This document shows positions 4,659 through 59,376 of a stretch of DNA of 64,000 bases, piece by piece. A model generated the notes under the pieces. That model was not told where the DNA came from. It worked only from the letters and a program-made list of their open reading frames with translations, and made no database searches. Position 1 is the first letter of the stretch; each line of letters begins with the position of its first letter. Location: NCBI GenBank assembly GCA_036785375.1, contig JAWMAR010000309.1:1-64000 (forward strand). Reading direction: 5' to 3'. This DNA is from Leucoraja ocellata (lineage: Eukaryota). The translations under genes were made by a program, and so were the position numbers.

Positions 4659-4686
4659 GACGTTTCGGGTCGAGACCCTTCTTCAG
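4659..4686 (-). ncRNA. Minimal hammerhead-ribozyme-like core in PLE-derived repeat (consensus copy)
   Basis: Reverse complement is CTGAAGA A GGGT CTCG ACCC GAAAC GTC. This gives CUGANGA, stem II, GAAA and a GUC triplet with palindromic ACGT in place of helix III. Confidence 0.55.
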
Positions 4687-5737: not shown

Positions 5738-6638
5738 TCTGCTCCCACACCACCCCTGGCAGTGCGTTCCAAGCACCCCCTACTTTCAGATTGATGAAGA
5801 GTCTCGATCCGAAATATCACCTATTTTTTCAGGAGGGATGCTGCCTGACTTGCTGAGTTACTCCAGCACTTTGTGTCTATCTTTGATTTAAACCAGCATC
5901 TGCTGCTCTTTGTTTCTACCCACCACCTTCTGTGTGTAAAAATAAAAAAATACTTGCCTTGCAGTCTTCCTTTAAACTTTGCCCCTCTCACCTTAAAGCT
6001 ATGTGCTCTAGTCTGCAACATTTCCATCCTGAGAAAAAGGTTCTGACTGTCTACCCTATCTAAACCTCTCATAATTTTAAAGACTTCTGTTGGGTCTCCC
6101 ATCAAACTCTGCTTCGGAGAAACCAATCCTATAGAACATTTTAGCTTTCATTGGTGGTTGTCATAGTATGTAGCAAGTGTCATGGGATTTCTACTGATAA
6201 GTAATATTGTCTAAAGAAGGGTTTTGACCCGAAATGTCACCTATTCCTCTTCTCCAGAAAAGCTGCCTGACCCGCTGAGTTAGTCCAGCACTTTGTGTAT
6301 ATATTCAGTAAAAGTACTAAATCTGGAAATACTCAGCAGATCAGGCAGCATCTATGGAGAGAATGAAGCAGGGTTACTTTCCGAGTCGATGGTCTTTTAT
6401 CAGAACTGGGAATGATTCCAGATGGAGACACAAGGACCTGGAGATGGTGGAATCTTTAAACCGGGAACTCTGGTTTCCTCCCACATCCCAAAGATGTACA
6501 GGTTTGTAAGTTAATTGGCCTGGATTTAAAATAAAATGTAAATTGTCCCTAGTGTGTAGGATAGTGTTAGTGTACAGGGCGATCATTGGTTGTCGTGGAA
6601 TTGGTGGGACTCTGGCTCCAAAACAAGGAACAGGAGAT

Positions 6639-6817
6639 ACACAACAATGCTGGAGAAACTCAGCGGGTGCAGCAGCATCTATGGAGCGAAGGAAATAGGC
6701 AACGTTTCGGCCCGAAACGTTGCCTATTTCCTTCGCTCCATAGATGCTGCTGCACCCGCTGAGTTTCTCCAGCATTTTTGTGTACCTTCGATTTTCCAGC
6801 ATCTGCAGTTCCTTCTT
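6639..6817. mobile_element. Palindromic PLE-derived mini-element with 18-bp TSD
   Basis: Near-perfect fold-back centred on aacgtttcgg|cccgaaacgtt. AAACAAGGAACAGGAGAT is repeated at 6621-6638 and 6818-6835. Confidence 0.85.
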
Positions 6818-6865
6818 AAACAAGGAACAGGAGATGATGGTTTGCAACAGGGGGATGAATTGGCA

Positions 6866-7582
6866 AGCAGCTCAACATCTTCAGATAATCAGCATTTCAA
6901 TTCCACATTTTCAGTTCACGCTCCATGTTTCTATAGTAATACCAGATAATCATTCCACACCTACACCTCCTCCAGATTACACTCTATTCCCATTACCACC
7001 ACTTTTTACTTTGCACGTCAGTTTTCACTCATCATTTAAATCTCCGACCTTCCGCCCAGTCCCGTAAATTAATTTAACCTGGGAATTATGCCATCAAGTG
7101 TCGGCCAATGCCATTGGTCCCGGCGCTAAACTCAGCCTGCCCATGCAGCCCGAATTGGTGGAGTAACTCTGCAGCTCAGGCTGCATCTGTGGAGGGGATG
7201 GACAGGTGTTTGTTTCGGGACGGGACCAATGGCATTGGCCAACAATTTCCGGAAGTGGGCGGAAGGTCGGAAATTTAAACGACGAGAGTAAAATGACGTG
7301 CAAAGTGAAAGGTGATGGTAATGGGATTAGAGTGTAGTCTGGAGGAGGTGTAGGTGTGGAGTGATTATCTCGTATTACTATAGAAACATGGAGCGTCAAC
7401 TGAAAATGTGGAATTGAAATACTGATTATCTGAAGAAAGGTCTCGACCCGAAACGTCACCTATTCCTTCGCTCCATAGATGCTGCCTCACCCGCTGAGTT
7501 TCTCCAGCATTTTTGTCTACCTTCGATTTTTCCAGCATCTGCAGTTCTTTCTTGACCGATTATCTGAAAATGTTGAGCTGCT
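6866..7582. repeat. Long imperfect inverted-repeat (fold-back/MITE-like) element
   Basis: 6866-7064 is the diverged reverse complement of ~7250-7435 plus 7558-7582. Inner arms are at 7102-7122 and 7221-7240. The right arm is interrupted by a PLE mini-repeat with duplicated GATTATCTGAA. Confidence 0.8.
7430..7457 (+). ncRNA. Hammerhead-like core (sense to IGSF3)
   Basis: CTGAAGA AA GGT CTCG ACC C GAAAC GTC. Confidence 0.45.
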
Positions 7583-9422: not shown

Positions 9423-12400
9423 CATATGACAATTAAGCTCTCTTGATGAAGAAATGAGCATGAATTCAATTGTGAATAATGTGGGTTTGGCCCACTGTTT
9501 AAAACATGAGATGTGTTAAATATTCACACGTGGAGGGGGCAGGGGGGGCTATGCGAGATCCTAATAAATATTTTGATTGCTGCCCATTTGTTTCCACCTT
9601 AGTGTGTGCTTGGAACTTGCACAAGTCACGATTCTGCTCCTTATTAGTTATATCCATTACTATGTGGAATTGTGAATTTGGTCTCTGGAGACGTGCATGT
9701 CATTTGGGTTGGCTGCTTGCTTTAATCGATCTTCCATTTCTCACTAATGAGAAGGTCTAATTATACATTTTGATGCTACGCGCCTGCCAGCTCCATTTTG
9801 CTGTGCAGTGCGGTGGAAGGGAGATTCGGGACCACTTTTAGGTAACAGCTGTCACACAGCTGTCGAAGTAATATTAAAGGCTCTTTTATCTGCTTTACTT
9901 GGAAGTCTTGCTCTTCATCAACTAAGACAAACCACCATCAAACTGCCTCCTTTAGTTACAGCATGCAAACGACCTACCACACGTGACATTGTTGGCTCAT
10001 AGAACACAGTGCAGTATAGGAACGGGCCCTTCGGCCCACAGTGTTTGTGCTGAACGTGATGCCAAGTTAGACTGATCTCATCTGCCAGTGCATGATTCAT
10101 ATTCCTCTATTCCCTTCATTTCCATGTAATCTATTAATAAACCTCTTAAATACCACTATGGTATCTGTCTCCACCACCACCCCAGGCCCCCTCCACTCTC
10201 AATGCAAAAACAAACTTACACATTTCCATTAAACGTTCCCCCTCTTCCCAACAATGAACAGGCTCTTGAACACTACACAACACTAACATCAGTTAAACTA
10301 CCGATTGTCTTTGGTTGTAATAAGAACTTTGGGCTTTTTAGCATTAATATTGTGATTATTACCTTATTGAAGTTTTGTTTTTTATACATTACCTACATGT
10401 ATTGTGTTTACAGGCCTGTTGTGTTGCTGCAAATAAGTACTGTCAGTAAATATAACAATTAAACACAGCCATCAATGGACCATTGTGGGCTCCTTGGCCA
10501 TCGGTGCAGGCTCTGATTTGTTCTGCACCTTTCCATTCCTCTAGTTTCCCTCTCCGTTGTCTCTGTCTGAAGAAGGGTCTCGACCTGAAACGTCACCAGT
10601 TCCTTTCTCCAGAGACGCTGTTTGACTCACTGAGTTACTCCAGCATTTTGTGTCTATTTTTAGTGTAAACCATCATCTGCATCATCCTTCCTACCAAGTT
10701 GGAATATCACCAAAACCTTTGGCATTTGATTCAGTAATCAACCATCTGTATGTGAGCTAGAGAGTGCGTTAACTTAGATTCAAGGAGCTGCAGATGCTGG
10801 TTTACAAAAAAAGACATGGTTTCAAGGTCAATCTATTGTTACATGTACCAATCAAGGTACATTGACTTTCCAATGACCATACAGCCATACTTAAAAAAAG
10901 ACACACAACTACATAAAAATTAACTTAAACATCGACCAAAGCAGATTCCTGGCTGTGATGGAAGGCAGAAAAGTTCATCTTCTTCCTCTTTTATTCTCCC
11001 GTGGATGGGCCAGTCGAACCATCCGCAGTCGGGGCGATCGAAGGACCTGCGACTTGGGAGCTCCCAAAAGTTGGTCTCTAACTAGATACCGCGAGCTCGG
11101 TGATGTTCAAGTCCGCAGGCACCCACAGTTGCATCCTGTGCTACACTGTTCTATGTTCTACATACCAGGTTGTCAGTAAAGCAAGTACTGATGTACATTG
11201 GAGGTGCGATTTTTGTGCTGAAGGTAATTAGTTTAGAGATACAGCGTGGATGCAGGTCCTTCGGCCCATTGAGTCCACACCGACCATCGATCACCCACTC
11301 GCACTAGTTCAATGCTATCTCACTTCATTGGAGGGGCATCTGTGAAGACAATCACGAGCTGGAAACATATCCTGTGGTGCTCTTTTACAAGGGTGACACA
11401 GTGCTGCAGCGGTAGAGAACCCAGAGACCCGGGTTTGATCCTAACTACGGGTTCTGACCTATACGGAGTTTTACCTTCTCCCTGTGACCGCCTGGGTTTT
11501 CCCTGGGTGCTCCGATCCCCCCCCCCCCCCCCCCCCCCACATTAAACAGGCCTACAGATTTGTAGATTAAATGGCTTTTGGTAAAGATTTACAAATTGTC
11601 CCTTGTGTGTAGGATAGTGCTGTGTACGGGGTGATCCCTGGTCAGCGTGGGCCGAAGGGCCTATTTCCGTGATGTATCTGTAAACTAATCTAGTGTATGG
11701 GGCGACGGATGGTGGGTGTGGAATCAGTGGGTTGAAAGGCCTATCCCTGCAATGTATCTGTGAACTAGACCAAACAGGCCCATGAAGTATATGGAGGATG
11801 GGTCGGCAAACTATCCCGACGGAGAAAAGCAACTAGTTAATTGTAGTAACAGTCACAATGCAGTCACTGCAACGATCGAGAAACAAGATGAAAGAGAAGC
11901 GGGGAAGGATGTTCTGCAGCAAGGTCATCTCGTGTCAGTCAGATGATGCTGTTGTACTGTGCAAAATAAGTCGTGGGAAAGAATCTGATGACTACAGAGC
12001 TTCGGCTGTTTCCTGCACTGAATGGGGTGAATTGAGGTCGGGCTGGAATGTAGAGACAACTCAAGGAGCTCAGACGTCCCATGAGTGATGGTTTGTTAGA
12101 TCTGGACGTGTAGACGTCAGCTCCCTGCGTGTGACCAAAGGGAAGGACAGAGAGAAGGCAAAGCCTGTCTAGCTTCAGCTTGAATGTTTACCAGGAGTTT
12201 ATTCCTTGGAGTGCAGGAGGATCAGGGTTGATCCTATAGCATTGTATAAGATCATGAGGGGAATAGATAAGGTAACTGCACATGGCTATGTAGGGAACGG
12301 AGGGATATGGATCACGTGTAGGCAGAGGAGATTAGTTTATCAGCATCATGTTCAGCATGGACATTGTGGGTCAAAGGGCCTGTGCTGTGCTGTTCTATGT

Positions 12401-12930: not shown

Positions 12931-13334
12931 CTTATGCCCTGGATTGCTATGTCAGGGTCCATGATGGTGAAAGAACAGAGACACGAGGATGAGGAGCCTC
13001 ACGAAGGAATTAAAGAAGAAAAATATTTTAGATTTATGGTGTTTAGTAACTTAAAGTGTGACTGGAAGTGCTGTTGTAGTTAATAAGTATTATTAGCCTC
13101 ATATGATGTCCAGACTGCAGTCGATCTTCAGATGATATGTTATACAACATATTTATGGTTACACATAAACCAACAATTGTGCTCCAGGAAGCAAGATGAG
13201 AAGGAAAGTGGACTTGGGGGAAGTAAGGTATTGGAATTATCTCTATTTGCAATGGGTACTTAGAGATTTGAAGTTTAGCTAGTAGGTTAGAATATGGAGA
13301 TATCTGAAGATGGTTCAGGCCTAGTTAATAACTA

Positions 13335-13900
13335 GGGACAGAGTCCCCTGAATCCTCACCTCACACCCTATCGCCTGTTGCATACAGCACATGATCTCTG
13401 CCATTTTCGCCACCTCCAATGGGATCCCACCACGAGCCACATCCTTCCATCTCCACCCCATTCCACTTTCTGCAGACACCGTTCCCTCCGCAGCTCCCTG
13501 GTTAACTCGTCCCTTCCCTTCCAAACCACCCCCTCCCCAGGTACTTTCCCCTGCAACCGCAGGAGATGCCTCGCCTATCCCTATACCTCCACCCTCGCCT
13601 CCATCCAGGGACCCCGACAGTCCTTTCAGGTGAGGCATAGGTTCACTTGCCCCTCCTCCAACCTCATCTACTGTATCCATTGTGGGCTCCCGCTCTCCTG
13701 GGCATCGGTGCCGACTCTGATTTGTTCTGAACCTTTTCATACCTCTAGTTTCCCTCCCCCCTGACTCTGTCTGAAGAAGGGTCTTCACCCAAAACATCAC
13801 CAATTCCTTTTCTCCAGAGATTCTGTCTGACCCGCTCAGTTACTCAAGCGCTTTGTGTTTACCTTTGGTATAAACCAGCATCTGTAGTTCCTTCCTACGC
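13335..13900 (+). mobile_element. Penelope-like element fragment (RT-to-GIY-YIG linker) followed by PLE terminal repeat
   Basis: FRHLQWDPTTSHILPSPP...GTFPCNRRRC...FTCPSSNLIYCIHC is typical of the PLE linker and the start of the GIY-YIG domain. The repeat with a degenerate core ctgaagaagggtcttcacccaaaacatc follows at ~13771. Confidence 0.85.
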
Positions 13901-17444: not shown

Positions 17445-17659
17445 GAATGTGTAGAAAGGAACTGCAGGTGCTGGTATACACCAAAGATAGACATAAAATG
17501 CTGGAGTAACCCGGCAGGTCAGGCAGCATCTCTGGAGAAAAAGGATAGGTGACGTTTTGGGCCAGTGTCTGAAGAATGATCCTGACCCAAAATGTCATCC
17601 GTCCTTTTTCTCCGAAGATGCTGCTGGACCCGCTGAATTACTCCAGCACTGTGTGTTTA
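17445..17659. mobile_element. PLE-derived fold-back mini-element with 11-bp TSD
   Basis: Two inverted copies of the PLE repeat. TATTGAGTATA is at 17434-17444 and 17660-17670. Confidence 0.75.
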
Positions 17660-17670
17660 TATTGAGTATA

Positions 17671-18245
17671 AGTTCGGATGTCACGCTGCGGTTATGTAAG
17701 GCGTGGTGAGGCCACATTTAGAGCGTTGTGTTCAATTTTGTTCACCATGTTATAGGAAAGATGGTGTCAAGCTGGAAAGGGCGCAGAGAAGATTTGCGAG
17801 AATGTTGCCAAGCCCCAAGGGCGTGAGGTATAGGGAGAGATTGAGCAAGCAAGGACTATTCCTTGGAGCGCAGGACAATGAGGGGCGATCTAATAAAGGT
17901 GTATACAATTATGAGAGGAATAGATCAGATAGGCGCACAGAGTCTCGTGCCCAGAGTAAGGGAAATCAAGAAGCAAAGGACATGGGTTTAAAGTGAGGGG
18001 GGAGAGATTAAATAGGAACATGAGGGTTAACTGTTTTTACACAAAGGTGTATGGAACTGCCGGAGGAGGTAGTTGAGGCAGGTACTATTGCAATGTTTAA
18101 GAAACATTTGGATTAAAAAGGATAGGACAGATTTAGAGGGGTATATGGGCCAGACGCAGGCAGGTGTGATTAATGTAGAAGGGGCATGTTGGTTGGTGTG
18201 GGCAAGTTGGGCCAAATGGCTTGTTTCCGCGCTGTATGACTACGA
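17671..18245 (+). mobile_element. CR1-type LINE 3' fragment
   Basis: VRPHLERCVQFCSPCYRKDGVKLERAQRRFARML followed by CR1 3'UTR. Confidence 0.85.
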
Positions 18246-22465: not shown

Positions 22466-25400
22466 CAATTACTCTAAAGCAAATAATCCTCTTTTATCTT
22501 ATGTCGAAAATACCATAGAGATACTCAGTTCATCTTATCTTCATAGGCTGTGTTTATTTTTAATTATTAAAAGAATGTTTTATGGAATGTCTTAGGCTGC
22601 TGAATTAATGTGCATTAGGTAATGCAAAAACTGTGTTGCAATTAATGTGCAGTTGACTTACACAGCGATCCATCATGATGGTAATTTTAAGTTTATGTAA
22701 CATAACTGGCAAATATTCTCCCTGGCCCTGGATGTGTTTTTTTTTAAAAGATGAGGAATTTCTTTAGTCAGAGGCTGGTGAATCTGTGGAATTCATGCTG
22801 TGGAGGCCAAGTCAATGGATGTTTTTAAGATGGAGATTGACAGATTCTGGATTAGTAAGGGTGCCGGGGGGTTATGGGGAGAAGGCAGGAGAATGGGGTT
22901 GAGCGGAAAAGGAGGATCTGCCAAGTAGACTTGATGTGTAAGCAGGAACAGCAGATGCTGGTTTAAACTAAAGATAGACACAAAAAGCTGGAGTAACTCA
23001 GCGGGACAGGCAGCATCTCTGGAGGAAGGAATGGGTGACGTTTCGGATCGAGACCCTTCTTCAGATGGACCGAATGATGTAATTCTGCCCCTAGAATTTA
23101 TGAACTTGTCAGCCATGCCAAAGATAGCATTAAGATGGAACGAGTGAAGAGAAGACTTACGAGGGTGTTGCCAGGACTTGAGGGAAAGGCTGTACAGGCT
23201 CGGACTTTATTCCTTGGAGGGCAGAATAAAATCATGATGGGAATTGATAGGGCAAATGTAGAGTCTTCTTACCCAGGGTAGAGGAATCAAAAACCAGAGG
23301 ACACAGTGACACAGCCTGTAGAGCCGTAACCTCACAGCGCCAGAAACTGGTTCAATCCTAATCTCGGGTGTTGTCTGTGTGGAATTTGCTCATTGTCCCT
23401 GTGACTCTGTGGGTTTCCTTACGGTGCCTGAAGACACAAAGACGTGCAGGCTGGTATGTTAATTGGCCGTCTGTACGTTGCCTTCTAGAGTGCAGGGAGT
23501 GGATGAGAAAATCAGATAATGTAGAACTGGTGTGAACGGGTGATTGATGGTCGGCGTGGACTCGGTGGGCCGAAGGGCCTGTTTCCATCTATCTTGAAAC
23601 TAGATGGCATAGGTTTAATGTAAGAGGGACAAATTTTAATAGGTAGTTGAGGGGCAACGTTTTTACACAGAGGGTTGTGGGTATGTGGAAGGAGCAGCCA
23701 GAGGAGGTAGTTGAGGCAGGTACTATAATAACATTTAAAAGACTCCGATGCATGGATAGTAATGGTTTAGAGGGATATGGGCCAAATGAGGACTAACTTA
23801 GATTGTGTTAGAAACATAGAAAATAGGTGCAGGAATAGGCCATTCGGCCCTTCAAGCCTGCACCGCCATTCAATATGATCATGGCTGATCATCCAACTCA
23901 GTATCCCGTACCTGCCTTCTCTCCATACCCCCTGATTCCTTTAGCCACAAGGGCCACATCTAGCTCCCTCTTAAATATAGCAAGAGGGAGTTAGATGTTC
24001 TTGAATGAGTTGGGCAGAAGGGCTTGTTTCCCAGCTCTATGTCTCAATATTCTTGCTTTATGCTCATAAATCTTAAATCTATTCCCAACCATATGGTTAG
24101 ACAATCCACTCACCAGGCAGCAACTATCAATATAGTGAACCTATGAGGGAGTGGCAAGGTTGAGAGGGAGATCCTAGTAACATCATGCACAGAAACAGGC
24201 CCTTCAGGCCCTTCAATGCCTCTGCCGAGCATGATGCCAAGTTAAACTAATCTTCTTTGACTGTAACAAATCCAAATCCCTGCATATCCATGTGCCTATC
24301 TAAAAGTCTCTTAAACATCACTATCATATCTGCCTCCACCACCACCCCGGCATCATGTTCCAAACACCCACCAGCCTCTGTACAAAAATAAACTTGCCCG
24401 GTACTTCTCCTTTAAACCTTGCCTCTCTCACCTTAAAGCTATGCCTGCTAGACTTTGGTATTTCTACCCAGAGGAAGACGGTTCTGATTGTCCACCCTAT
24501 CTAAGTCTCGCATAATTTTATATACTCATGGGCAAAGTGTTAAAAATCAATTGAAGGAATTGTATTGCTTAATTTTTGTTTTAAATAACATTTTTGCATC
24601 TTTTTCGCTGAAAGCAAATGATCTTGTGTGATATTTTAAAATGAAGAACTTTTACTTTGGCTACTAAAAGAAATCTGTGGGATTCGGATTGGTTTGGGGA
24701 GAGCTTTATCTGAATCTGAATGATTCCAATAACGCCCATCTTGTAAATTGTGGACACAAATGATTGCAATGAAGAAAGATGTTGTCTTCCCATCTGGTGA
24801 AAACAAGACAAGAGACTGCCCCTTGAGAATTAGTGGCTATTTTGGTGTAGGTATGCAATTATCGTGTGTACCTAGATACAGTGAAAAGCTTTTGTTTGCG
24901 TGCAAGGGTGGCACAATGGCACAGCTGGTAGAGCTGCCACCTCACAGCGCCAATGACCCGGGTTCGATCTTGACCTCCGACGCTACTGGTGTGGAGTTTG
25001 CACGTTGTCCCTGTCACCATGTGAGTTTCCTCCGGGGGCTCCAGTTTCCACCCACATCCCAAAGACGTGCGGGTTTTTAGGTTAATTGGCCGTCTATAAA
25101 TTGCTGCTAACTTTGTGTCTTTTTTTTGATAACCAGCATCTGCAGTTCCTTGCTTCTACTTTTCACTGTACCTTGGTACATGTGCCTATAATAAACCTAA
25201 CATATCGAGTGTGGAGAGTGGACAGGAAAGTGGGATAACATAGAACTAGTGCGAACATGTGATTGACGGTCAACATGGAATCGGTGGGCCGAAGGGCCTG
25301 TTTCCATGCTGTGTCATTCACTCATTAATTTATTAATTTTGAATTATTGATAAAAAATTTTTTATTGTATGTTATGTATGTGTATCATGTTTACAGCCCT

Positions 25401-28410: not shown

Positions 28411-29060
28411 ACACATTTTACAAAAATTTGAGCTTGAAAAATGTTTACAGTGTAACATCAAAAATATTCACCTCGGCCTCGTTGTTTTGCTTGTTATAGT
28501 GTTAAAAACCAGAGTGCAAACCCAACACTTGTACAAATTCCAGTGGGCAGCTTCACGTTGATGTAATACAGAGGTTCATTGGAGCAAGATGGCTCATTTG
28601 CATCTTTTATTTTTAAGCAGACCATCTGTTCGAAGTTGGCATGAATTAAGTCAAAGCACTGGCATATCCAAATGTAACACTGTGAACCCAGTCAAAGCTT
28701 GAAGCTGAATAGCCAGGCCTTGGGGATAAGGACTATCACTGCTCAAAACCTGAGCTGGGAGCCAAAAGCCAATTAAAAAATCCTGCTGCCACCTTCCCTC
28801 AGCGGTACGCAGAGGTGGGGAGCTTGGGTGTCGGGAATATTTGTGGGGTGGGTGAATTCAATAAGAGATGCTGCCTGACCTGCTGAGTTACTCCAGCACT
28901 TTATGTTTATCTTTGGTTGAAACCATCGTCTGCAGTTCCTTTGTTTCTACATATAGGTTGGTGTAATGTAAAGGTTAAAACAGGCTTGCCAGCGAAAATT
29001 GAGTTGTCTTCTAACAGTCCTTATGTGAACAGGTACATGAATAGGATAGGTTTAGATGGA

Positions 29061-29515
29061 AGGTTACACAAAAAAGCTGGAGAAACTCAGCGGGTGCAGC
29101 AGCATCTATGGAGCGAAGGAAATAGGCAACGTTTCGGGCCGAAACCCTTCTTCAGACTGATCGGGGGCGGGGGTGGGTGGGGACAAGAAAGGGAAAAGGA
29201 GGAGTAGCCAGAAGGCTGGGGGATGGGAGGAGACAGCAGGGGGGCTGAGGAAGGGGAGGAGACAGCAAGGACTAACAAAATTGGGAGAATTCGATGTTCA
29301 TGCCCCCGGGGTGCAGACTCCCCAAACGGAATATGAGGTGCTGTTCCTCCAATTTCCGGTGCTGCTCGCTGTGGCCATGGAGGAGACCCAGGACAGAGAG
29401 GTCGGAGGCGGAGTGGGAGGGGGAGTTGAAGTGCTGAGCCACCGGGAGGTCAGCTTGGTTATTGCGGACCGAGCGGAGGTGTTCGGCGAAACGATCGCCC
29501 AACCTCCGCTTGGTC
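29061..29515 (-). mobile_element. Penelope-like element 3' end (GIY-YIG C-terminus + terminal repeat) with 14-bp TSD
   Basis: LGDRFAEHLRSVRNNQADLPVAQHFNSPSHS...RKLEEQHLIFRLGSLHPGGMNIEFS. TAGGTTTAGATGGA is duplicated at 29047-29060 and 29516-29529. Confidence 0.9.
29128..29155 (-). ncRNA. Hammerhead-like core in PLE terminal repeat
   Basis: Reverse complement is CTGAAGA A GGGT TTCG GCCC GAAAC GTT: stem II with a UUCG loop and palindromic AACGTT. Confidence 0.55.
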
Positions 29516-31429
29516 TAGGTTTAGATGGATATGGGCCAAATACACACAGGTGGGTCTAGTGTAGGTTGACTAATGATATGGGACAAAATCGGGCAAATGG
29601 GAGTAACTTTGATGGAGCATGTTGGTCAGCATGTGCAAGTTGGGATGAAGGGCCTGTTGCCATGCTGTACGACTCGATAAACGGTACACTCTACATTAAA
29701 CTTAATTTTAAACGATGTTCAACATTTGTAACCTTGCATAAATTAGCCAGCGTTGAAGATCTGCCAATTGCCTGCAGGCTGTGAGCAAATTATGAAAAGG
29801 ATTCTTCTTTGAATAACATTCAATGGCAAGCTCGCTGCTCGTTTGTACAGATATCCCTAGAAGAATGGGAAAGCCCAGACCATCACACAAACCAATCTCC
29901 CTTCCATTGACACCATCTACACCTCACGCTGCCTCGGCAAGGCCAGCAGCATAACCAAGGACGAACCACAATCCAGTCACTCCCTCTTCTCTGAAAGAGA
30001 ATGCTACTTCTTCTTCTGCTGTGAAAACTCACACCTTTGCATTCAGCGACAGTTTCTTCCCAGCTGCTATCAGGCAACTGAACCATCTTATCAACAATTT
30101 AGAGTGGTGCTGAGCTACTATCCACCTCACTGGAGACCCTCAGGCTATCTTTGATCGGACTTTACTAGATTCTATCGCACTAAACATTATTTGTGTTATC
30201 CCCTTTATTCATGTATCTGTACACTGTGGATGGCTCGATTGTAATTGTGTACCTCTGTATTGTCACCTCACAATAAATTAAACTCTACAATAGTCAAAAG
30301 CCCCGAGCAATATCACCAAGCTGATTGTCACTTGTGCTGACAGGCGGAGTAGTGACTGTGCTCTTTGTTGGTCTGTTCCCCGACCTACAAGCATTGCATC
30401 TACAGCGTCACCACTGTATGTAATGGGCACGTGCCTGACACACCTGGTCTCCCTCGAGGGTGAGAAGTTCCATTCTCCAAGCAAGTAATTCCAGTCCGTC
30501 AAATTTCCAGAGCAAATCCTGAATGCTTCCAGCACGTTAAAGGCCCATTTATTTTAATGCCCAATTGCTGCTAAAACGTCTCCACTTCTGTTTTTGATGA
30601 AGGGCCCTGACCTGAAACATCGCCTATCAGGCGGCACAGTGATGCCGTGATAGAATTGCTGCCTCATAACCAAAGACACTAGGCTCATACCACCACAGAC
30701 CCGGGTTCGTCCACAGACTACGCATGCTGTCTGCACGGAGTTGTTACATTCTCCCTGTGACCGCGTGGGTTTTCTCCGCGTGCTCCGGTTTCCTCCCACA
30801 TCTCAAAGACCTGTGGGTTTACAGGTTAATTGGCTTCTGTAAATTGCCCCTAGTATTTAGGGAGTGAATGTGAAAACGGGATAATGTAGAACTAGTGTGA
30901 GTGGGCGATCGATGGTCAGCACAGACTCGGTGAGCCGAAGAGCCAGTTTCCAGACGGCATCTCTAAAGCTAATCCTAATATTATCCATGTTCTCCAGGGA
31001 TGCTGCCTGACCCCCTGAGTTACTCCAGCACTTTGTGTCTTTTTTGGTATAAACCAGCTTCTGGGGTTTCTTGTGACTCCACTTTGGTTTATATCCATCT
31101 ACATCTTCCACCAATATTCCTTCCTCTGTCTATGCAATTCACTCCTTCTTCTCTCGTTTGCCCTTTTATCTCCTTTTCACCTCCAGCCTTTGTCACTCGC
31201 TCCACCCATCTGCCAATCAACCCCCCCCTCCCCCTCCCCAGTAACCATTTATCACTTGCCAGGGTTTGTCCCACCCCCACTGTGATTACTCTTCCAGCTT
31301 TGTTTTCCAATCCCCCTCATCCACCCTACGATCAGTCTGAAGAAGGGCTGACCTGAACCGTCACCTATCCATGTTATCCAGAGGTGTTACCAGGCCCGAT
31401 GAGTCAAAGGCTTTGGTGGACCGAGCCAA

Positions 31430-31620
31430 AAGGTCACCAAGTCTACGTTTGGTCTTGCCAATGTACAGGAAGCCATATCGGGATCACCGCTCAGTCTGCC
31501 ACGTCGCACTCGGTCCACCAAGATTTGCTAGATCTCCCGGTTGCCAACCCTTTCAACTCCCCTTCATATTCACACACTGAACTTCCTGTCCCGAGCCTCC
31601 TCCATTGCCTCGGGCTGAAA
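31430..31620 (+). mobile_element. Decayed Penelope GIY-YIG remnant
   Basis: HSVHQDLLDLPVANPFNSPSYSHTELPVPSLLHC resembles the 29272-29502 peptide. Confidence 0.6.
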
Positions 31621-34385: not shown

Positions 34386-34671
34386 TCAGTGGGTCAGGCA
34401 CCATCTCTGGAGAAAAATATGGGTGACGTTTTGTGTTTGAACTCTTTGGACTGAAAGTAGAGGGGAGAGAAAAGGCCAGAACAAGTCCTTAATTTGCCTT
34501 TGTAAATCACCCCTAGGGTGTAGGAGTGGATGAGAAAGTGGGATGACATAGAACTAATGTTAACGGGTAATTGCTGGTCGGCTTGGAGCCGATGGGCTGA
34601 AGAGCCTGTTTCCATGCTGTATCTCCAAACAAAACTAAACTAATGTCTTTATCTAACTTCATATTTAACAG

Positions 34672-35049
34672 GTTTGTGCAGAGCTCAAAGGCAGGTGCAG
34701 ATGCAGGAAGGACCCCTGATCAGATCGGAAGGATACCACACAACCATTTGGTGCAACGTATCTGGGTATTCCGGAACTACGGAGCAGAACTTTGAGTGGT
34801 CGATCTACCTGCCTTCTGCCCCGACCCGACAAATCCAGATCATCAGCACCAACGACCCTGGCTATCCCTACACGATGTACGGGGACAGGGTGCAGAATAA
34901 GGAGGTGTACGTGGAGAGGATTGACCGTGACTCGGCCCAGTTGCACATTACCAACCTCAAGCTGGGAGATGCCGGGGAATATGAATGCCACACTCCCAAC
35001 ACCGAATCCACCTACTGGGGATCGTACAATGCCAAGGGGAATCTGACAG
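34672..35049 (+). CDS. IGSF3: Internal exon encoding Ig V-type domain 1 of immunoglobulin superfamily member 3 (EWI family)
   Basis: Translation (G)LCRAQRQVQMQEGPLIRSEGYHTTIWCNVSGYSG...WSIYLPSAP...DAGEYECHTPNT...GSYNAKGNLT closely resembles my recollection of IGSF3 domain 1 (QRQVTVQEGPLYRTEG..IWCNVSGY..WSIYLP..DAGEYECHTP). Acceptor TTTAACAG|G, donor CAG|GTACGT, length 378 nt, phase 1-1. Paralogs CD101/IGSF8/PTGFRN fit less well but need phylogeny to exclude. Confidence 0.92.
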
Positions 35050-35355
35050 GTACGTGACTCTTGACTTCACATTGCTAGCTATTGTTAATGCCACACAAAC
35101 TTGTCTGGATTGGCACAGCGGCAGAGCAGGTGGAGCTGCTGCCTCCAAGCTCCAGGCCACATCACTTTAGACACAAGGTGCTGGTGTAATTCAAGGGGTT
35201 CGGCAGCATCTCTGGAGAACATGGATTAGTGATGTTTTGGGTCGGGACCTATATCTTTTCTCCAGGGCTGCTGCCTGACCCGCTAAGTTACTCCAGCACT
35301 TTGTGTCTATCTTCAGTGTGAACCAGCATCTGCAGTTCCTTCTTCCATGGACTTT

Positions 35356-38217
35356 TATTTTTATTTTTTTATTTTATTTATTAGAAGTAAGTACAATACA
35401 ATGGTACCTTTTTTCAGGTGCCAAATATATGTTGACATGATACATTCTCTGTACATTGAAACATAGAAAATAGGTGCAGGAGTAGGCCATTCGGGCCTGC
35501 ACCGCCATTCGATATGATCATGGCTGATCATCCAACTCAGTATCCCATCTCCATACCCCATGATCCCTTCTCTCCATACCCCCTGATCCCTTTAGCCACA
35601 AGGGCCACATCTAACTCCCTCTTAAATATAGCCAATGAACTGGCCTCAACTACCTTCTGTGGCAGAGAATTCCACAGATTCACCACTCTTCATTTTTTAT
35701 TTTTTTTCAAAGAAAGAAATGAAAAAGATAATAGAGAGTAGAAGAACGTGTAGTGTGTATAAAAAAGAAAGAGATAGTGAGAAAGAAAAGTAAGAAAGAA
35801 TAAGGAGCAAGAGAGAGATTAGCAAATAGGAGATAGAGATGAGTTTCTATATTGTTGACCATTTTTCACCCAGACCTGAAACAGTTGTTTTTTACGATTC
35901 TGTTGCACCACATGAATTCAAGAAGTCAATAAATAGAGACCAACTCGTTAAGAATTGGTCTGGTTTATCTATTAGGAGGAATCGCATTTCTTCAAGATGT
36001 GCTGTGTCCAACATATTTTTCACACAGAGAGTGGTGAATCTCTGGAACTCTCTGCCACAGAGGGTAGTTGAGGCCAGTTCATTGGCTATATTTAAGAGGG
36101 AGTTAGATGTGGCCAAGGGGATCAGGGGGTATGGAGAGAAGGCAGGTACGGGATACTGAGTTGGATGATCAGCCATGATCATATTGAATGGCGGTGCAGG
36201 CTCGAAGGGCCGAATGGCCTACTCCTGCACCTAATTTCTATGTTTCTATATTCATAATCCACATTTTGAGCGTTGACATGGTTGTATTTTTCCAAAATTT
36301 AAGTATAAGTTTTTTTGCTATTATTAACCCATAATTAAATGAATTTTGGCATGTGTTTAATTTGTTCCCGTCTCCGGATACTCCAAATAAAATCAATTCA
36401 GTATTAGGTTCTATTTTTGTCTTGAATAGATTTGTGAATATATCAAAAATATCACACCAAAATTTATGAAGTTGTATACAGGAAACAAAAGAGTGTGTAA
36501 TATTGGCATTTTGAGATAGACATTTATCACAAATGGGAGAAATATTTGGATAAAAGTTATTCAGCCTAGTTTTTGGGTAATATAGTCTATGTAGTATTTT
36601 GAATTGAATTAAGTTGTGTCTTACATTAATCAAACATTTATGTATATATATCAAATACTTTTCCCATGTTTCTTTCGAGATTTTTATCATTAATTCTCGT
36701 TCCCAGTGCCTCTGTTGATGGTAATTCTCTATTTAAAATACTATTATATAGATATGATATTAATTTTTGTGAGTCAGCCCTAATATTCATTGATTCTTCC
36801 AGTGGGTCTAAAATTATAATTTGAAATCTTTGTATATATTTCTTCATAAAATCACAGATCTGTAAATGTTTAAAGTATTGGTTGTCATTCAGCCTTAATT
36901 TTAATTGTTGGAATGATAACAGATTTCCCATTTCATACATGTCGCCTACCCTTTTAATTCCCATTCTTTCCCATTGTTTGTATGTTTTATCACTATTGGC
37001 GTTAGCACTGATGGGTTTCTTAATTTTAAAGTTAATTTTATTTGTTTCCAAATTCATATTGTATTATGGATAATTGGATTCTTCTTATATATTGTGTTGT
37101 TCAGTTTTATCGGGGAGAAGAGGATCGCTCCTATATCACAAGGAGAACAATCCTCTTTCTCCATCCTTATCCATTTCGTCTGTTGGGGAGAGCTGTCCAA
37201 CCAATAAATTATATTCTTGATATGCACTGCCCAATAATAATAATACAAAAAATTAGGAAGTGAGAGTCCCCCAACATCTTTGGGTTTACACAGATGTTTT
37301 TTTTAATTCTATGTGATCAATAGTCCCAAATAAAGTTGGTAATATTAGAATCTAGTTTTTTTTTAATGTTTTGGTGTGTATATATATATATACACACAAT
37401 CTATATATATATATATAGATTGAAATATGTATAGCATTTGTGGTAAAAAAAATCATTTTTATAGCATTTATTCTGCCTATTAATAACAACGGGAGAGTTT
37501 TCCAGAATTTAATCAAGAGTTTCAATTTATTTAATAATGGCATAAAATTAGCGTTAAATAATGATTTGTGTCTTCTAGTAATTTGAATACCCAAATACTT
37601 AAATTTTTCTGTTGCAATTTTAAAGGGAAATTTTAATAAATGAGTTGCTTCATGAGGCTTTAATGACATAATTTCACTTTTATTCCAGTTTACTCTATAT
37701 CCTGAAAAATACCCGAATTCCTCTATTAAATTTAATAAGGTCGGAATACTCATTTGTGAATTTGTAATATATAAAAGTATATAATCTGCATATAATGAGA
37801 TTTTATTATTTGAGTCTTTAGTATTATATCCCTGAATATTCGGATGAGTTCTTATCCTTTCAGCCAAAGGCTCTATCATAAGGGCAAATAGCAGGGGTGA
37901 TAATACACATTCCTGCTTATTGCCCCTCGTTAATTGGAATTTTGGTGATAACATATTATTAATTAATATTCTTGCCGTCAGTTTATCATATAGTAATTTT
38001 ACCCATATAATGAAATTCTCTCCCATATTTTTGGAGTCTACCTGATCAAATGCTTTCTCTGCATCCAGAGAGACAACTGATATATCTTCTTTTCCCGTTT
38101 TAAGTGAGTACATTATATTAAATAGGCGTCTCAAATTATTAAATGATCATCTTTTAGGTATAAACCCCGTTTGGTCTGGATTTATCAATTTATTAATATA
38201 TTTACTCAATCTTCTTG
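35356..38217 (-). mobile_element. 5'-truncated L1-clade LINE (decayed ORF2) with 14-bp TSD and two nested CR1 tails
   Basis: RT motifs SLDAEKAFDQV, LSPLLFAL and ISLYADY (37352-38134). C-terminal CDKC..HSFVSC knuckle (36238-36690), ORF end at 35892, A-rich tail at 35356. CTTCCATGGACTTT is at 35342-35355 and 38218-38231. Confidence 0.9.
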
Positions 38218-38557: not shown

Positions 38558-38672
38558 AATGGCCTAATTCTGCTCTTATGAAATATTATAGTATTTTAAA
38601 ATGTCAGTATGCGCACTCTGTGTATGTTGAAATCATGAGGGGAATAAATAGGACAGATGAACAGAGTCTTTC

Positions 38673-39689
38673 GCCTATAAATCCATGCTGACTTTGTCCA
38701 ATGATTTCACCACTTTCCAAATGTGCTGCTATCCCATCTTTAATAACTGACTCTAGCAGTTTCCCCACTACCGATGTTAGACTAACTGGTCTGTAATTCC
38801 CCATTTTCTCTCTCCCTCCCTTCTTAAAAAGTGGGGTTATGTTTGCTACCCGCCAATCCTCAGGAACTACTCCAGAATCTAAAGAGTTTTGAAAGATTAT
38901 TACTAATGCATCCACTATTTCTGGAGCTACTTCCTTAAGTACTCTGGGATGCAGCCTATCTGGCCCTGGGGATTTATCGGCCTTTAATCCATTCGATTTA
39001 CCCAACACCACTTCCCGGCTAACCTGGATTTCACTCAATTCCTCCAACTCCTTTGACCCGTGGTCCCCTGCTATTTCCGGCAAATTATTTATGTCTTCCT
39101 TAGTGAAGACGGAACCAAAGTAGTTATTCAATTGGTCCGCCATATCCTTGTTCCCCATGATCAACTCACCCGTTTCTGACTGCAAGGGACCTACATTTGT
39201 TTTAACTAATCTCTTTCTTTTCACATATCTATAAAAACTTTTGCAGTCAGATTTTATGTTCCCTGCCAGTTTTCTTTCATAATCTATTTTTCCTTTCCTA
39301 ATTAAGCCCTTTGTCCTCCTGCTGGTCTCTGAATTTCTCCCAGTCCTCCGGTATGCTGCTTTTTCTGGCTAATTTGTACGCATCATCCTTCGCTTTGATA
39401 CTATCCCTGATTTCCCTTGTTATCCACGGATGTACTACCTTCCCTGATTTATTCTTTTGCCAAACTGGGATGAACAATTTTTGTAGTTCATCCATGCAGT
39501 CTTTAAATGTCTTCCATTGCATATCCACCGTCAACCCTTTTATAATTAATTGCCAGTCAATCTTGGCCAATTCACGTCTCATACCCTCAAAGTTACCTTT
39601 CTTTAAGTTCAGAACCATTGTTTCTGAATTAACAATGTCACTCTCCATCCTAATGAAGAACTCAACCATATTATGGTCACTCTTGCCCA
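38673..39689 (-). mobile_element. CR1-type LINE internal ORF2 fragment (endonuclease end to RT start), frameshifted
   Basis: GKSDHNMVEF..., LNNYFGSVFTKED, KSPGPDRLHPRVLKE, PEDWRVANITPLFKKG, NYRPVSLTSVVGKLLE, SQHGF. Confidence 0.92.
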
Positions 39690-42600
39690 TGGCTGATCAT
39701 TATTTGTTGTTGGATAGATACAGCGTGAAAACAGATCCTTCAGCCCACCGAGTCCACGCCAATCATCGATCACCCCATCACACTAGATCAATGTTATCCC
39801 AGTTGCTCATCCACTCCCGACATGCTAGGGGCAATTTACAGAGGGTTAATTAACCTACAAACCCGCACGTCTTTGGGATGTGGAAGGAAACTGGACCACC
39901 CGGAGGAAACCCTGGCGGTCACAGAGAGAACAACACAGATACGTAGACAGGATCGAACCAGGTATAGTTTAGTTGAGTTTAGAGATACAACACGGAACAG
40001 GCGCTTCGGCCCACCGGGTCTGTGCCGACCAGTGATCCCAGTACACTAGCATTATCCAACACATTATGGACAATTTACAATTTTTATCGGCTAATTAACC
40101 TACAAACTTGCAAGTTTTTGGAGTGTGGGAGGAAACCAGAGCACCCGGAGAAAACCCACACAGTCATGGGGAGAATGTACAAACTTCGTACAGACGACAC
40201 TTGTAGTGAGGATCGGACCCGGGTCTCTGTCGTTTTGAGGCAGCAGCTCTACCCGCTGCGTCCAGTGTAGCTGGTTCTGTCTATGTTATTGACTGTATCT
40301 GTTGTCAAACTACAATGAAATAGATATGGAGTTAGGGCTTTATAATGAATCTCAGACATGATACATAATTCAAGCAGTCGGTGGCAATGGTATTGTGCAT
40401 GGTTGGAGTCTGTAAGATGTGTTTGATGTTGTGTCAGTATTACCACAAAGCCATCTCTAATGTGAAAAGCATGTGAAGATTAAAAACAAAATCCTGTTTC
40501 ATTTTCCTGACTGCAAAGAGTGATGGACAGATGTACATGAGTACTCCACAGCTTTGTTCTTGAGCAGTCGATATTTGTACACTCACAGCTACATGTTTAC
40601 AGTGGGACAAATAATGTAAGACTCTTCCAGATGGGATGGATTGCCGTTTCCATTCTACAGTACAAGCTTCATGTTTTGAGATAATTCTCTCCAGCTTAGC
40701 CTTTGGTGCCTTTAAATTTCAGTCCAAGATGATATAGTCATAGAGCTCTACAGTACAGGAACAGGCCCTTCGGCCCATAATGTCCATGCCCAGCATGATG
40801 CCAAGTTCAATTTTTTTATATAGAGATCCAGTGCTGAAACAGACCCCTCGGCCCCACTGGAACCGTGGTGACCAGCGATCCCCGCACACTGACATTATCC
40901 CACACACACTTTGGACAATTTACAATTTTACCGAAGCAAATGAATCTACAAACCTGCATGTCTTTGGATTGTGGGAGGAAACCAGGGCACCCGGAGAAAA
41001 CTCACATGGTCATGGGGAGAACATAAAACTCCGTACAGACAGCAGCTGTAGTCAGGATCGAACCCGGGTCTCTTACTCAGTAAGGTAGCACCTCTACCGC
41101 TGTGTTGCATCTCTGAAATCTAAAGTAAAGTCTAAAGATTACATGTCCTACATTACTCTTTTTCTACATAAACTCTTTGTATCTCTATCTCTGTCTAATT
41201 GTCTTTTAAAAGTTGCCATTATGTCCACTTCTATAGCTTCCTCTGGCAGCTCATTCCAGATACAGACTACCATCTGAATGAAAAGTTGCCCCTTTGGTCC
41301 CACCTAAATATTTTTCCATTTTGTTGAATTGGAACAAAATTAAACCATAAACCAAAATTCTTGTTTCCAAGCTGTAACTCTAAACGTTCACCTTAAGCCT
41401 CTACCCTCTAGTTTTAGAGTCTTCTACCATGATGGGGGGGGGAAGGCATTCACTTTATTCATGCCCCTCATGATCTTGTACACTTCACTCCTCAGCCTCC
41501 TATGCTCTAAAGTAAAATATCCCAGCCTGTCTAACCTTTCTCTATAATTCAAGCTCACAATCCAGATTTGGTTTAATTTAGTTTAGATACAACATGGAAA
41601 CAGGCCCTTCGACCCACCAAGTCTATGGCAATCATCGATCACCCGTTCACACTAACTAGCTCTACATTATCCCATCATTTTCTCATCAATCCCTACACAT
41701 TAGGGGCAATTTACAGGGGTCAATTAAACTATACATTGCACATGAACCTGGTGGTCATGGTTTTCAGGCTTTCTGCACCCTTTTCCCAATGATGGGAGAG
41801 AAAAGAGAGCACGGCCAGGGTGGTCAAGGTCTTTGATGATGCCTTCTGTTGACCCCTTTGATGATGGACCCCATGATAGGACAGTTCACCACTCTCCATA
41901 ATCATTCCTGGGTGTTCAAGTTGCCGAACCAGGCCGTGATGCAGTCTGTGTAGGAAGGAACTGCAGATGCTGGTTTACACCGAAGATAGACAAAAAGCTG
42001 GAGTAACTCAGCCGGTTAGACAGCATCTCTGGAGAAAAGAAATGGGTGACGTTTTGAATCGAGACCGTTCTTCTGAATGAGACCCGGGGGAGAGGGAATC
42101 CAGAGATATGAAAAGGTACATAGAACAAATTAATGAAAGATAATACAAAAAGACAGATCAAAGCCAGCAATGATTATCAATGAAAGGTGGAGCCCTCAAT
42201 GGTCTATTGTTGGCTATGGGGAAGGTGACAATGAGTAATACAAACAGTGTAAATGGAGTCTATTGTAAATCCTCCTCCCAATCTGTTTCTGACCAATATT
42301 TATGAGCCAACCTACTGACTGGGTCTCCTCGCACAAGGTGTAGATGCAGATTGCCTTCAGTCGGCATGCAGCATTTATGCGTGTGGCACTCCAGGCTTAT
42401 CCAAATCCATCCACAAATTCATTCTCAATTCAGAATTTTAGCTTTCCACTAATACTTAGGGCTTCAATTGTACAGAGAAGCCTCTTATTTAATACCTCAG
42501 CAAAAGCCTTCTGAAAGCTGCATTTGTATATGTGATAACTGCACAAAATTCGAAAGTCGGTTGCTATATTTATGTTAGTGCCGTATTCATAAATGGAATT

Positions 42601-43036: not shown

Positions 43037-44824
43037 CACTACTTATCATTTTTAAAGCTTCCTTTTTCTAAAGAAAACAGTGAGAATATTTCCCAATCAA
43101 GATGTTTTTAACTGATATACATCGTTGTTATCTTTAAACTCGTCATGTCATAGAGCCATACAGTGAGGAAACAGGCCCTTCGGCCCAACCTGCCCACACC
43201 GACCAACATGTCCCATCTACACTAGTCCCACCTGCCTGCATTTGGTCCATATACCTCTAAACCTGTCCTATCCATGTACATGTCTAAATGTTTAGTTTAG
43301 TTTAGACATACAGCGCGGAAACAGGCCCTTCGGCCCACCGGGTCCGTGCCGACCTGCCATCCACACACATTAACACCATCCTACACACACCAGGGACAAT
43401 TTACCTTTATACCAAGCCAATTAACCTACAAACCTGCACGTCTTTGGAGTGTGGGAGGAAACCGAAGATCTCGGAGAAAACCCACGCAGGTCATGGGGAC
43501 AAAGTGCAAACTCCGTACAGACAGCACTAGTAGTCGGGTGCTTCCAACTTTCAGGTGCAATGTTTCTTAAACGTTGCGATAGTACCTGCCTCAACTATAT
43601 TCTGCACTCTGTATCTTCCCCTTTGCTCTACCTATTATACTAAGTTTGACTTTGTTTATGAGTTTTGGTCTATTATCTGATCTGATTGGATAGCATGCAA
43701 ATCAAAGCTGTACCTTGGTACACATGACAATAATAAACAAGAACCTAAACAAATTTGTACGAAGGAACAGCAGATATTCTTTTTTTCATACGTATAGTTT
43801 TCAATGGGCCCGGTATTCACACCGCCTTTGTGCTGCTCGCTCTCTCCGCTCCTGCAACCGGAAGCTCCCGCCACGTTGGGTGCAACGGGAGCCTTGGTCT
43901 GCTATAACCGAAATCCGATATATAGGTTATATCCGATGTATAGGTTATATCCGTTTGAGGGTTTACAGAATCTGAAGAAGGGTCTCAACCTGAAACGTCA
44001 CCTATTCTTTTTTTCCAGCGATGCTGCCTTACCCGCTGAGTTGCTCCAGCGTTTTGTGTCTATCAGTTATAGAGCGGTCCGTTATTGCAAGGATTTACTG
44101 TATTGGATGAACCACTTTGGTGACGTACACCTAGAGAGAGATTGAAGAGCGTTAATGTTTTTTTTATTAGCTGACATCCGCATAAGGCAGGACTGACTAG
44201 TTCCTGTAAATTGCCCTCCGTCTGAGACGGCTGTCTGGTCCCACTGTCTATCCAATTCCGTATGCTGGAGTAATGTCTTCTTTTGATGAATAGATTGTCA
44301 TAATGACAGTAAATTGCTGCTCCAGCAATGACTTTTTTTCCCCAGACCTTCTTGCAAAGACAACACTACAATTAATGCTGTTACACAAAATTCTTTCTCG
44401 TTCTGGTAAACATAGCTGGAGGCTGGGTAAATTCCACACAATACTACGTATCAAGTGTTGGTTTTAGATTGTGCTCTTTGCGTAAGGAGTATTGGCATCT
44501 GTTACCAGAGTAGATGGGTGTACAGTAGCAACACAATGGAGCAGCGGGTAGAGCCACTGCCTTACCACACCAGAGACCTAGGTTCGTTCCTGTCGGTGTG
44601 TGTGGAGTTTGCATGCTCTCCCAGTGACCACATAGGTTTACTCCTGATGCTCTGGTTTCCTCCCACCTCCCAAAGACGTGCAGGTTTGCTTTTCACAATG
44701 CAAATAGAACTGCAAGTAAAAATGTATTTGTTCTGTTTTGGTGCATATTGACTCTTGAACTAGTGCGAACAGGTGATCGCTGGCCAGTGTGGGGCCCGTT
44801 TCCTTGCTGTATCTCCAAACTAAA

Positions 44825-53361: not shown

Positions 53362-53559
53362 TGCAGGAAGGAACTGCAGGCGCTAGTTTAAACCGAAGAT
53401 AGACATAAAATGCTGGAGTGACAGCTGAACAGGCAGCACCTCTGGAGAGAAGGAATGGGTGACGCTTCGGTTAGAGTAGGGTCTCAACCCGAAAAGTCAC
53501 CCATTCCTTCTCTCCAGAGATGCTGCCTGTCCTGCTGAGTTACTCCAGCATTTTGTGTC
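53362..53559. mobile_element. PLE-derived fold-back mini-element with 13-bp TSD, at the head of a V-SINE
   Basis: TGTGGTAGAACTG is at 53349-53361 and 53560-53572, flanking inverted PLE repeat arms. Confidence 0.8.
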
Positions 53560-57850: not shown

Positions 57851-59376
57851 ATGCTCTATTCATTGAATTCGAAAGCTTATCATCAATAAAGATCAATGCT
57901 TTTCACTAAACCTTTATCAACAGAAATAATAACTCAATTCCTAGAAAAATAAACTTACATTATGGATTAAGATCATTAAAATCATACATCATATAAAATC
58001 TGAATTGATTCATTAAAAATCTAAGATTTCAAGTTCAATGTGATTTATTTTAATTGCAATCAATAAACACATCTGTATTTTTTGTAGTTTGATTAATAAC
58101 ACTGTTTTCTAAGGAAAATTTTACCAGATGGTGCACATGAATATATGTGAGCATTTGTTTTAGCTACACTCTAGGTACAGTAAGTATTATCTAACTTTCG
58201 GTCCTTGCCTGAAGAAATGTTGTGTCTAAAGAAAATTTGAAATCAAAGGTGGTTAAAGTTCGAATTGTATTCAAAGCATTTATTCAGAGGTCAAATCACA
58301 AAGTGTTGGAGGAAGGAAGCGGGTCAGGCAGCATCTGTGGAAGCAATGGACCATTGACGTTGCGGGTCAGGACCATTCTTCGAATCTGAGTCGTGATTAG
58401 CAACGTTGCCTGTTCATTCCCTCCACAGATGCTGCCTGACCCGCTGAATTGATAAGTTCAGAAATCATAGGAGCAGAGTTAGGCCATTTGGCCCATCGCG
58501 TCTCCGCCATTCAATCATGGCTGATCCATCTTTCCCTCTCAACTCCATTGCCTCGCCTTCTCCCTCTAACTTTTTGCCGCCCTTACTAATCAAGAACCAG
58601 TCAATCTCTGCTTTAAAAATACCCAAGGACTTGGCCTCCACAGCCGTCTGTGGCAAAGATTTCCACAGATTCACACACTCTGGCTAAAGAAATTCCTCCT
58701 CATCTCCTTTCTAAAACTTCCTCCAGCACTTTGAGTTTTGCTCAAGATTTCTAGCATCTGCAGTCCTTCCCATCTCCATTTATTTTGCGGAATGTCTTCT
58801 TGAAAACACGACGCATTGAACTGCAAAATCCATTCCCAAGCTGTGTTAATACTGTGAAGGTATCATAGCAACATCTCATCTCAAAAGTGTGATGGCCAAT
58901 TTTACCACCGCTCTGTGCATTCACTGCATAATTGCGCGGAGCCAAAGCACAATTTATTCAGAGTGCCTGGGCGCTTAATTGCAGTTTATAAATACCAATA
59001 AAGTTGGCAAAGTTTCCAACAATTTCTACTTATTTCTGATTTCCAGCAACTTCAATTTGTTCGAGAAACAAGGAACTACAGATGGTGGATTAGAAAAAAA
59101 TACCCACAAAGTGCTGGAAGAACTTTACAGGTTAGGCAGCATCTCTGGAGAACATGGATAAGTGACGTTTTGGGTCAGGGACCTTCTTCAGACTGAAGGA
59201 GATGGGTCTGAAGCCGGATAGCCAAAACATTGACTATCTGTATTCTCCAGAGATGTTGCCTGTCCTATTGAGTTACTCCCCAACTTGGTGTCTTTACCTT
59301 CAGTTTGTCAGTTTGCTTAACATAGAACTGGCCCTAGGGCCCACTATGTCTGTGCCGAACATGATGCCAAGACTAA

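Follow-up and report, generated by a model that had tools for sequence, protein, structure and literature searches.

A minimal hammerhead motif in the terminal repeat of a skate Penelope-like element, present as truncated and probably inert insertion copies

Minimal hammerhead ribozymes in the pLTRs of metazoan Penelope-like elements (PLEs) were reported by Cervera and De la Pena in 2014 (PMC4209133). As described there, and as in the skate motif examined here, they combine a CUGANGAH box, an unpaired nucleotide before stem II, a G10.1-C11.1 pair and a GAAAC-GUH palindrome without helix III, at a site 3' of the endonuclease ORF, and occur mostly as single, dispersed, truncated copies or as opposite-strand pairs. 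The extra nucleotide after A9 is treated as a trait of the PLE family, 2-bp helices I are shown for Culex, D. virilis and Oikopleura, and Table S1 and Fig. S3 of that paper are without cartilaginous fish. More recently, the element Poseidon_Ac (PAc) of Anolis carolinensis was characterised (Frangieh et al. 2024, PMC11167929), which, like the skate element, carries its hammerhead within the pLTR, has an optional tail set by two 3' end points further downstream, and shows no RNA-seq ends at the cut site. On the account given there, the PAc hammerhead cleaves only with the PLE protein and is dispensable for insertion in vitro. Cleavage with help from the protein is shown for PAc only. PAc is a member of the Penelope/Poseidon clade with an ORF that begins in stem II, whereas the skate motif has no visible ORF start and homologues of its element carry the CX2-5CxxC linker of Neptune/Nematis (P0005; PMC8557442).

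Two further groups of hammerheads resemble the skate copies in part. Non-LTR retrozymes (PMC7229834, bioRxiv 10.64898/2026.07.22.740005) are likewise short non-coding units with a type I hammerhead and kinship to PLE pLTRs, but are defined there as tandem repeats, whereas the skate copies are dispersed or head-to-head. The conserved intronic hammerheads of amniotes (RECK, CTCL, DTNB; PMC6155905) also lie within host introns; as described, they are conserved single-locus motifs, unlike the skate copies, which belong to a transposon, are decaying and give no indication of having been retained on the host strand. In the literature searched, skate or shark PLE hammerheads were absent, bar the one chondrichthyan sampled for tandem retrozymes in the preprint (bioRxiv 10.64898/2026.07.22.740005), and Lunse et al. 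2017 may list some. Judged by its sequence, the skate motif is a member of the published PLE minimal hammerhead class, present as decaying stubs.

The window analysed is a stretch of 64,000 nt from Leucoraja ocellata (GCA_036785375.1, contig JAWMAR010000309.1, positions 1 to 64,000, forward strand), in which an initial annotation had proposed a minimal hammerhead within the dominant short repeat. The motif was found at all six sites given as clean or near-clean and at all nine given as degenerate. A generic pattern of the published consensus, which the skate motif matches (CUGANGAH/G..C/GAAAN/palindrome/NUH), gave three exact matches (4659-4686, 23037-23064 and 29128-29155, all on the minus strand), compared with none in each of 100 dinucleotide shuffles. 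Position names follow the hammerhead numbering and the NUH rule. The six principal copies are:

29128..29155, minus strand: the one minimal hammerhead in which core, stem II (one U-G), palindrome and a 2-bp helix I (U-G, G-C) are all intact; cleavage predicted after 29128
4659..4686, minus strand: headline copy of the initial annotation, with perfect core and stem II and a native leader; a 10-12 nt deletion takes out the 5' strand of helix I
23037..23064, minus strand: intact core, one G-U in stem II, 1-bp helix I; upstream similarity stops 1 nt before C3
7430..7457, plus strand: G10.1 changed to A; helix I of 1 bp
10567..10594, plus strand: helix I of 2 bp and a native leader; C11.1 replaced by U through a CpG transition
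43972..43999, plus strand: C11.1 changed to U; helix I of 1 bp

Of the sites given as clean or near-clean, the three on the plus strand have all lost the G10.1-C11.1 pair. The reported alternation in stem II (T-A versus T-G) does exist, as a U-A/U-G change in the full copy at 29155 and the inverted pair at 6634-6818, but it is one-sided. Two features that had been entered as caveats, an extra A after the core and a helix I of only about 2 bp, both have precedent, the same unpaired nucleotide being a published family trait and a 2-bp helix I occurring in published cases, as their lower limit (PMC4209133). Compared with those 2-bp G-C cases, the skate helix I is weaker, with U-A or U-G next to the core, and its 4-bp stem II is unlike the set published there. 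None of the 13 matches to Rfam covariance models up to E=5 was to a hammerhead family; MIR1507 and the other miRNA matches fell below the gathering score, arise from inverted pLTR pairs, and were discarded. The longer palindrome, AACGTT, would pair A14 with U17, which the active hammerhead fold leaves unpaired. The longest inverted repeat found in the window (6878-7070 / 7244-7436; 193 nt, 91% complementary) ends at the 7430 copy.

The link to PLEs made in the initial annotation is borne out by coding sequence next to the repeat. The features concerned are:

29272..29514, minus strand: 5'-truncated PLE ORF of which the 3' end remains, coding for the GIY-YIG endonuclease C-terminus up to the stop; identified by tblastn
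29056..29271, minus strand: pLTR of the 29155 insertion, comprising a pyrimidine-rich leader, TCAGTC (29160-29155), the hammerhead and the 3' part; 3' end approximate
13331..13897, plus strand: internally deleted PLE, an RT-endonuclease linker fused to a pLTR that has the tail and a decayed hammerhead (13771)
31373..31608, both strands: decayed PLE endonuclease fragments beside the pLTR copy 31319-31404 (plus strand)
6634..6818, no strand assigned: head-to-head inverted pair with 76-nt arms, 97% complementary; junction in the stem II quasi-palindrome

The endonuclease stop codon lies ~120 nt upstream of the 29155 hammerhead on the same (minus) strand, with pyrimidine-rich bases between. By tblastn, the fragment 29272..29514 is 86% identical to P0002 (Leucoraja erinacea), 67% to P0005 and 51% to P0036, an RT-bearing homologue of 597 residues; in P0036 and P0044, PF00078 is found upstream of the part that matches. 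The GIY-YIG label is based on homologues (one with PF01541) and on motif reading, and the homologues show cysteines inside the YIG region and downstream histidines, an arrangement described for PLE endonucleases (PMC8557442). The linker fragment at 13396-13683 is 59% identical to P0001, and Pfam gave no match for the 13336 fragment or for P0001. The CX2-5CxxC linker is complete in P0005 and has lost its last Cys in the window fragment; on this motif reading, the element may belong to the Neptune or Nematis clade. An RT domain or full-length PLE was not found in the window. Two adjacent broken LINE fragments, AT-rich and with RVT_1 matches and one weak zf-RVT, lie at 36238-38146 and 38604-39696 (both minus strand).

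The repeat itself, modelled by an HMM, measures ~130-170 nt and is represented by 53 fragments, which make up 8.5% of the 64-kb window. Copies are 5'-truncated, nine head-to-head inverted pairs occur among the fragments, and two clusters of 3' ends, ~30 nt apart, lie at model positions 136-141 (11 of 53) and 165-168 (21 of 53), this optional ~30-nt tail being on one arm only in seven of the nine pairs. Truncation at the 5' end, inverted 5' copies and an optional tail of 30-40 nt are described marks of PLE insertion (PMC8557442). Together, the upstream endonuclease, the 5' truncation, the inverted pairs and the two 3' end points identify the repeat as the pLTR of a PLE. Inverted pLTR pairs at 6634-6818, 17456-17671, 35168-35344, 53367-53560, 55241-55431 and 59067-59306 form hairpins of 50-90 bp, which would give double-stranded RNA in either transcript orientation.

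The fold was also compared with related motifs outside the skate. Seven loci, belonging to four families, were obtained from metagenomes with the core pattern, three of them being identical around the motif, while viral contigs and prokaryote genome contigs gave none. In two of these loci, L018 and L019, a homologous endonuclease (42-43% identity, E 5e-18 and 7e-15) precedes the shared core by 86 and 96 nt. A pattern of the 3' flank gave no metagenome loci; 13 viral loci that it returned were dropped, as inspection revealed no sign of the repeat. Helix I was absent from the search pattern and can be compared between loci, whereas stem II of the outside loci was fixed by the pattern and hence provides no test. 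Across 12 rows, made up of seven window copies hand-picked for keeping the two upstream bases and five loci of the four families, the 2.1-1.1 pair was formed in all 12 (U-A 6, A-U 3, U-G 2, G-C 1) and the 2.2-1.2 pair in 11 (G-C 9, C-G 2), with a third pair in four; the covariation score was reached by none of 500 shuffles. Helix I of L017 is limited to 1 bp. One unrelated locus (L016:498-534, minus strand) has the upstream TTCAGT seen in skate and a 3-bp helix I, and no similarity in the 3' flank. Among 45 proteins examined, one (P0006, zebra shark, LMKGLRPKRQ) reads through the motif and implies U at N7, helix I being unreadable from protein.

In ViennaRNA predictions the three intact skate copies prefer another hairpin, in which the 5' strand of stem II pairs with bases after the cut site, leaving stem II probabilities of 0.05, 0.0 and 0.19 under a model that omits tertiary contacts. 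For L014, L016, L018 and L019, the three G-C pairs of stem II have probabilities of ~1.0. Nearest-neighbour energies never favour the double-hammerhead fold, for the outside loci as well, and were used neither for nor against dimer activity.

Within the window, the motif was followed through 27 full-span copies, 13 on the plus and 14 on the minus strand. Their majority sequence has the core boxes CUGANGA, GAAA and NUH at the right spacing, G-C at 10.1-11.1, and ACGU in place of helix III (15.2-16.2), in agreement with the proposed minimal hammerhead with a palindromic helix III; an unpaired A before stem II is present in 26 of 28 copies. Second alleles common to many copies are found in loop II, at H17 (C/U) and at 1.1 (A/G, pairing to U kept). 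Individual copies are far more eroded: the core boxes are intact in six of the 27, the core, G10.1-C11.1 and palindrome in three (4686, 23064 and 29155, all minus strand), and everything including the 2-bp helix I in one (29155), loss of the palindrome being mostly through CpG transitions. Core CpGs are changed as often as the flank CpG (27/77 compared with 27/90 in window copies), so inserted copies decay neutrally.

Conservation of the core was compared with that of its flanks. Changes across the window numbered 30/354 in the core and 373/2416 in the flanks (p=0.036), a contrast that is biased since the copies were seeded on the core. When copies were re-ascertained on the flanks, with 26 of 47 hits kept, the lower rate held for the 3' box (8/104 compared with 29/156 in the flank) and failed for the 5' box (39/182), where the count is inflated by truncated copies. 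The conservation check of the initial annotation belongs on subfamily masters rather than on dead copies.

Numbers for the family as a whole come from sequencing runs of relatives only. Between 58,000 and 102,000 contigs were placed on the repeat per DNA-sized run, and the family is extremely abundant in skates. In contigs of three such runs, the 3' flank holds the common variants (24-49%), core CpG transitions go up to 8-14%, and non-CpG core variants are at or below 2.5% among the variants listed, positions near the stretch end being under-counted. In one relative's poly(A) Illumina RNA run, 10,758 of 7,335,232 records (0.15%) fell on the repeat, at equal depth on both strands. In that run, read ends did not accumulate and the cut site was not marked by a step, a weak test in another organism, and this agrees with the behaviour of the Anolis element.

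Taken together, it is very probable that the motif is a minimal hammerhead in the terminal repeat of a skate PLE and that the copies in the window are truncated insertion products, likely inert. The motif lies ~120 nt behind the PLE endonuclease stop, and related PLEs of other animals have it in the corresponding position. Selection would maintain it in active master elements, with subfamily changes confined to tolerated positions and helix I covarying; by analogy with the Anolis element, cleavage might occur only with the PLE protein, or with a second copy through the ACGU palindrome. Reverse transcription would then start 65-100 nt downstream of the cut site and mostly stop at or near the motif, an early stop that would leave stubs of ~100-130 nt and inverted pairs. 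Once inserted, core CpGs decay at the flank CpG rate.

Where copies begin bears on what else the sequence may do. Their starts tend to fall 2-3 nt ahead of the core, at a TCAGTC that resembles an Initiator, and in ~15 of the 28 copies listed upstream similarity is lost within 7 nt of C3, the sequence upstream of the common start points being heterogeneous. Loose ends at -2 and -3 are in the top six in three of four relatives' runs, with -2 in the fourth, while the cut site is outside the top six in every run. Only one window copy (35247) starts exactly at the cut site, which is explained by a 3-nt microhomology at the inversion junction. A splice acceptor, as in D. virilis, was considered for the pyrimidine tract and CAG before the core; no RNA reads were found at the 15 joints listed, the upstream sequence of the common starts is heterogeneous, and the idea is unsupported. 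The inversion junctions 6704-6718 and 35247-35249 coincide with short stretches of self-complementarity within the hammerhead, which suggests that the cDNA was primed by fold-back. As a tentative and itself somewhat unlikely extension, the stubs may be complete DNA copies of the 5' end of uncut RNA that starts at TCAGTC, three bases before C3, so that promoter and ribozyme overlap and the competing hairpin blocks the ribozyme until PLE protein binds. A start at TCAGTC together with internal initiation of reverse transcription, as in Anolis, would yield stubs of ~100-130 nt and account for their tenfold excess over coding sequence.

A rather unlikely alternative is that the sequence is kept mainly as a PLE core promoter and a fold-back or priming structure, with catalysis weak or vestigial in the skate family. 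The TCAGTC directly before the core fits the Initiator consensus TCAKTY (PMC2670823), an internal Inr/DPE-type promoter is described in the pLTR of D. virilis Penelope (PMC2377424), and the start points and loose ends given above also speak for it; hammerhead mutants of the Anolis PLE insert unimpaired in vitro (PMC11167929), and the junction at 35247/35249 lies at the GGT/ACC arms of the predicted competing hairpin. Against this, TCAKTY occurs 168 times in the window, the DPE consensus RGWYV at +28 to +32 fits at four of five places, and the upstream TCAGT is missing in three of the four outside families, whereas compensatory changes in helix I and freedom at N7, loop II and H17 are predicted by catalysis and unneeded by a DNA promoter. 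A promoter job and catalysis can coexist. Considerably less probable is that the repeat forms an independent non-autonomous element, either a tandem retrozyme or a tRNA-derived SINE, and is no PLE stub. In relatives' runs, depth over the 100 nt with the motif is ~10x that over the endonuclease region, and the 2026 preprint derives retrozymes from PLE pLTRs (bioRxiv 10.64898/2026.07.22.740005), both as such an element would have it; yet the positions and spacings of copies in the window include no head-to-tail array and no tandem repeats with intact hammerheads, several copies continue into PLE coding sequence, and for a tRNA-like head ARAGORN found 0 genes, the copies beginning a few nt before the core.

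The least probable reading concerns the host gene, of which the window holds one exon:

34671..35049, plus strand: IGSF3-like coding exon, first Ig domain; 100% over 121 aa to P0047 (L. erinacea)

Further IGSF3 exons were not found in the 64-kb window, the rest of which would be two introns. The initial annotation had seen here an intron carrying many potentially self-cleaving motifs on either strand, and that picture does not survive the copy-by-copy count. Thirteen full-span copies do lie on the IGSF3 sense strand, three of them with the core boxes kept, and the repeat accounts for 0.15% of records in a relative's poly(A) RNA; however, none of the 13 sense copies keeps the core, G10.1-C11.1 and palindrome, compared with three of the 14 antisense to IGSF3, and a single copy of the 27 is complete to helix I. 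An intact tandem pair for dimer formation was not found among the window copies, the closest same-strand neighbours (202, 425 and 431 nt apart) all involving decayed partners, and the relative's RNA, a weak test, was without an end pile-up or cut-site step. A hammerhead role in the host transcript is unlikely, since there is neither an intact sense-strand copy nor an intact tandem pair, and that dispersed copies act as ribozymes in IGSF3 pre-mRNA and affect its processing is extremely improbable. Selection against intact sense-strand copies was also considered and set aside, the strand difference being non-significant (p=0.22).

As the class is already published, the match itself changes little. 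The abundance of the skate family makes it a good statistical resource on what the PLE hammerhead does, given its in vitro dispensability in Anolis, with start points, inversion junctions and subfamily changes countable over many thousands of copies. If the stubs do represent the 5' end of the RNA, skate genomes would preserve, on a very large scale, a fossil record of where PLE transcription starts and of both points at which reverse transcription begins.

Several smaller observations were made along the way. In run X24, A>G at window position 4629 differs between read strands (2.5% compared with 6.8%) and T>C at 4654 differs in the opposite direction (7.2% compared with 4.6%), a pattern expected from A-to-I editing of repeat hairpins; it amounts to no more than a lead, weakened by a C>T site (4661) that is asymmetric too and by DNA runs that come from other organisms. 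The same run has a read-strand bias of ~2:1 on the endonuclease fragment (29272-29560) and none on the pLTR part; if dUTP stranding was used for the library, the excess is probably antisense to the PLE ORF. Towards the end of the window, 61193-61851 is GC-rich and contains a CAG-type repeat as well as open frames that overlap on the two strands.
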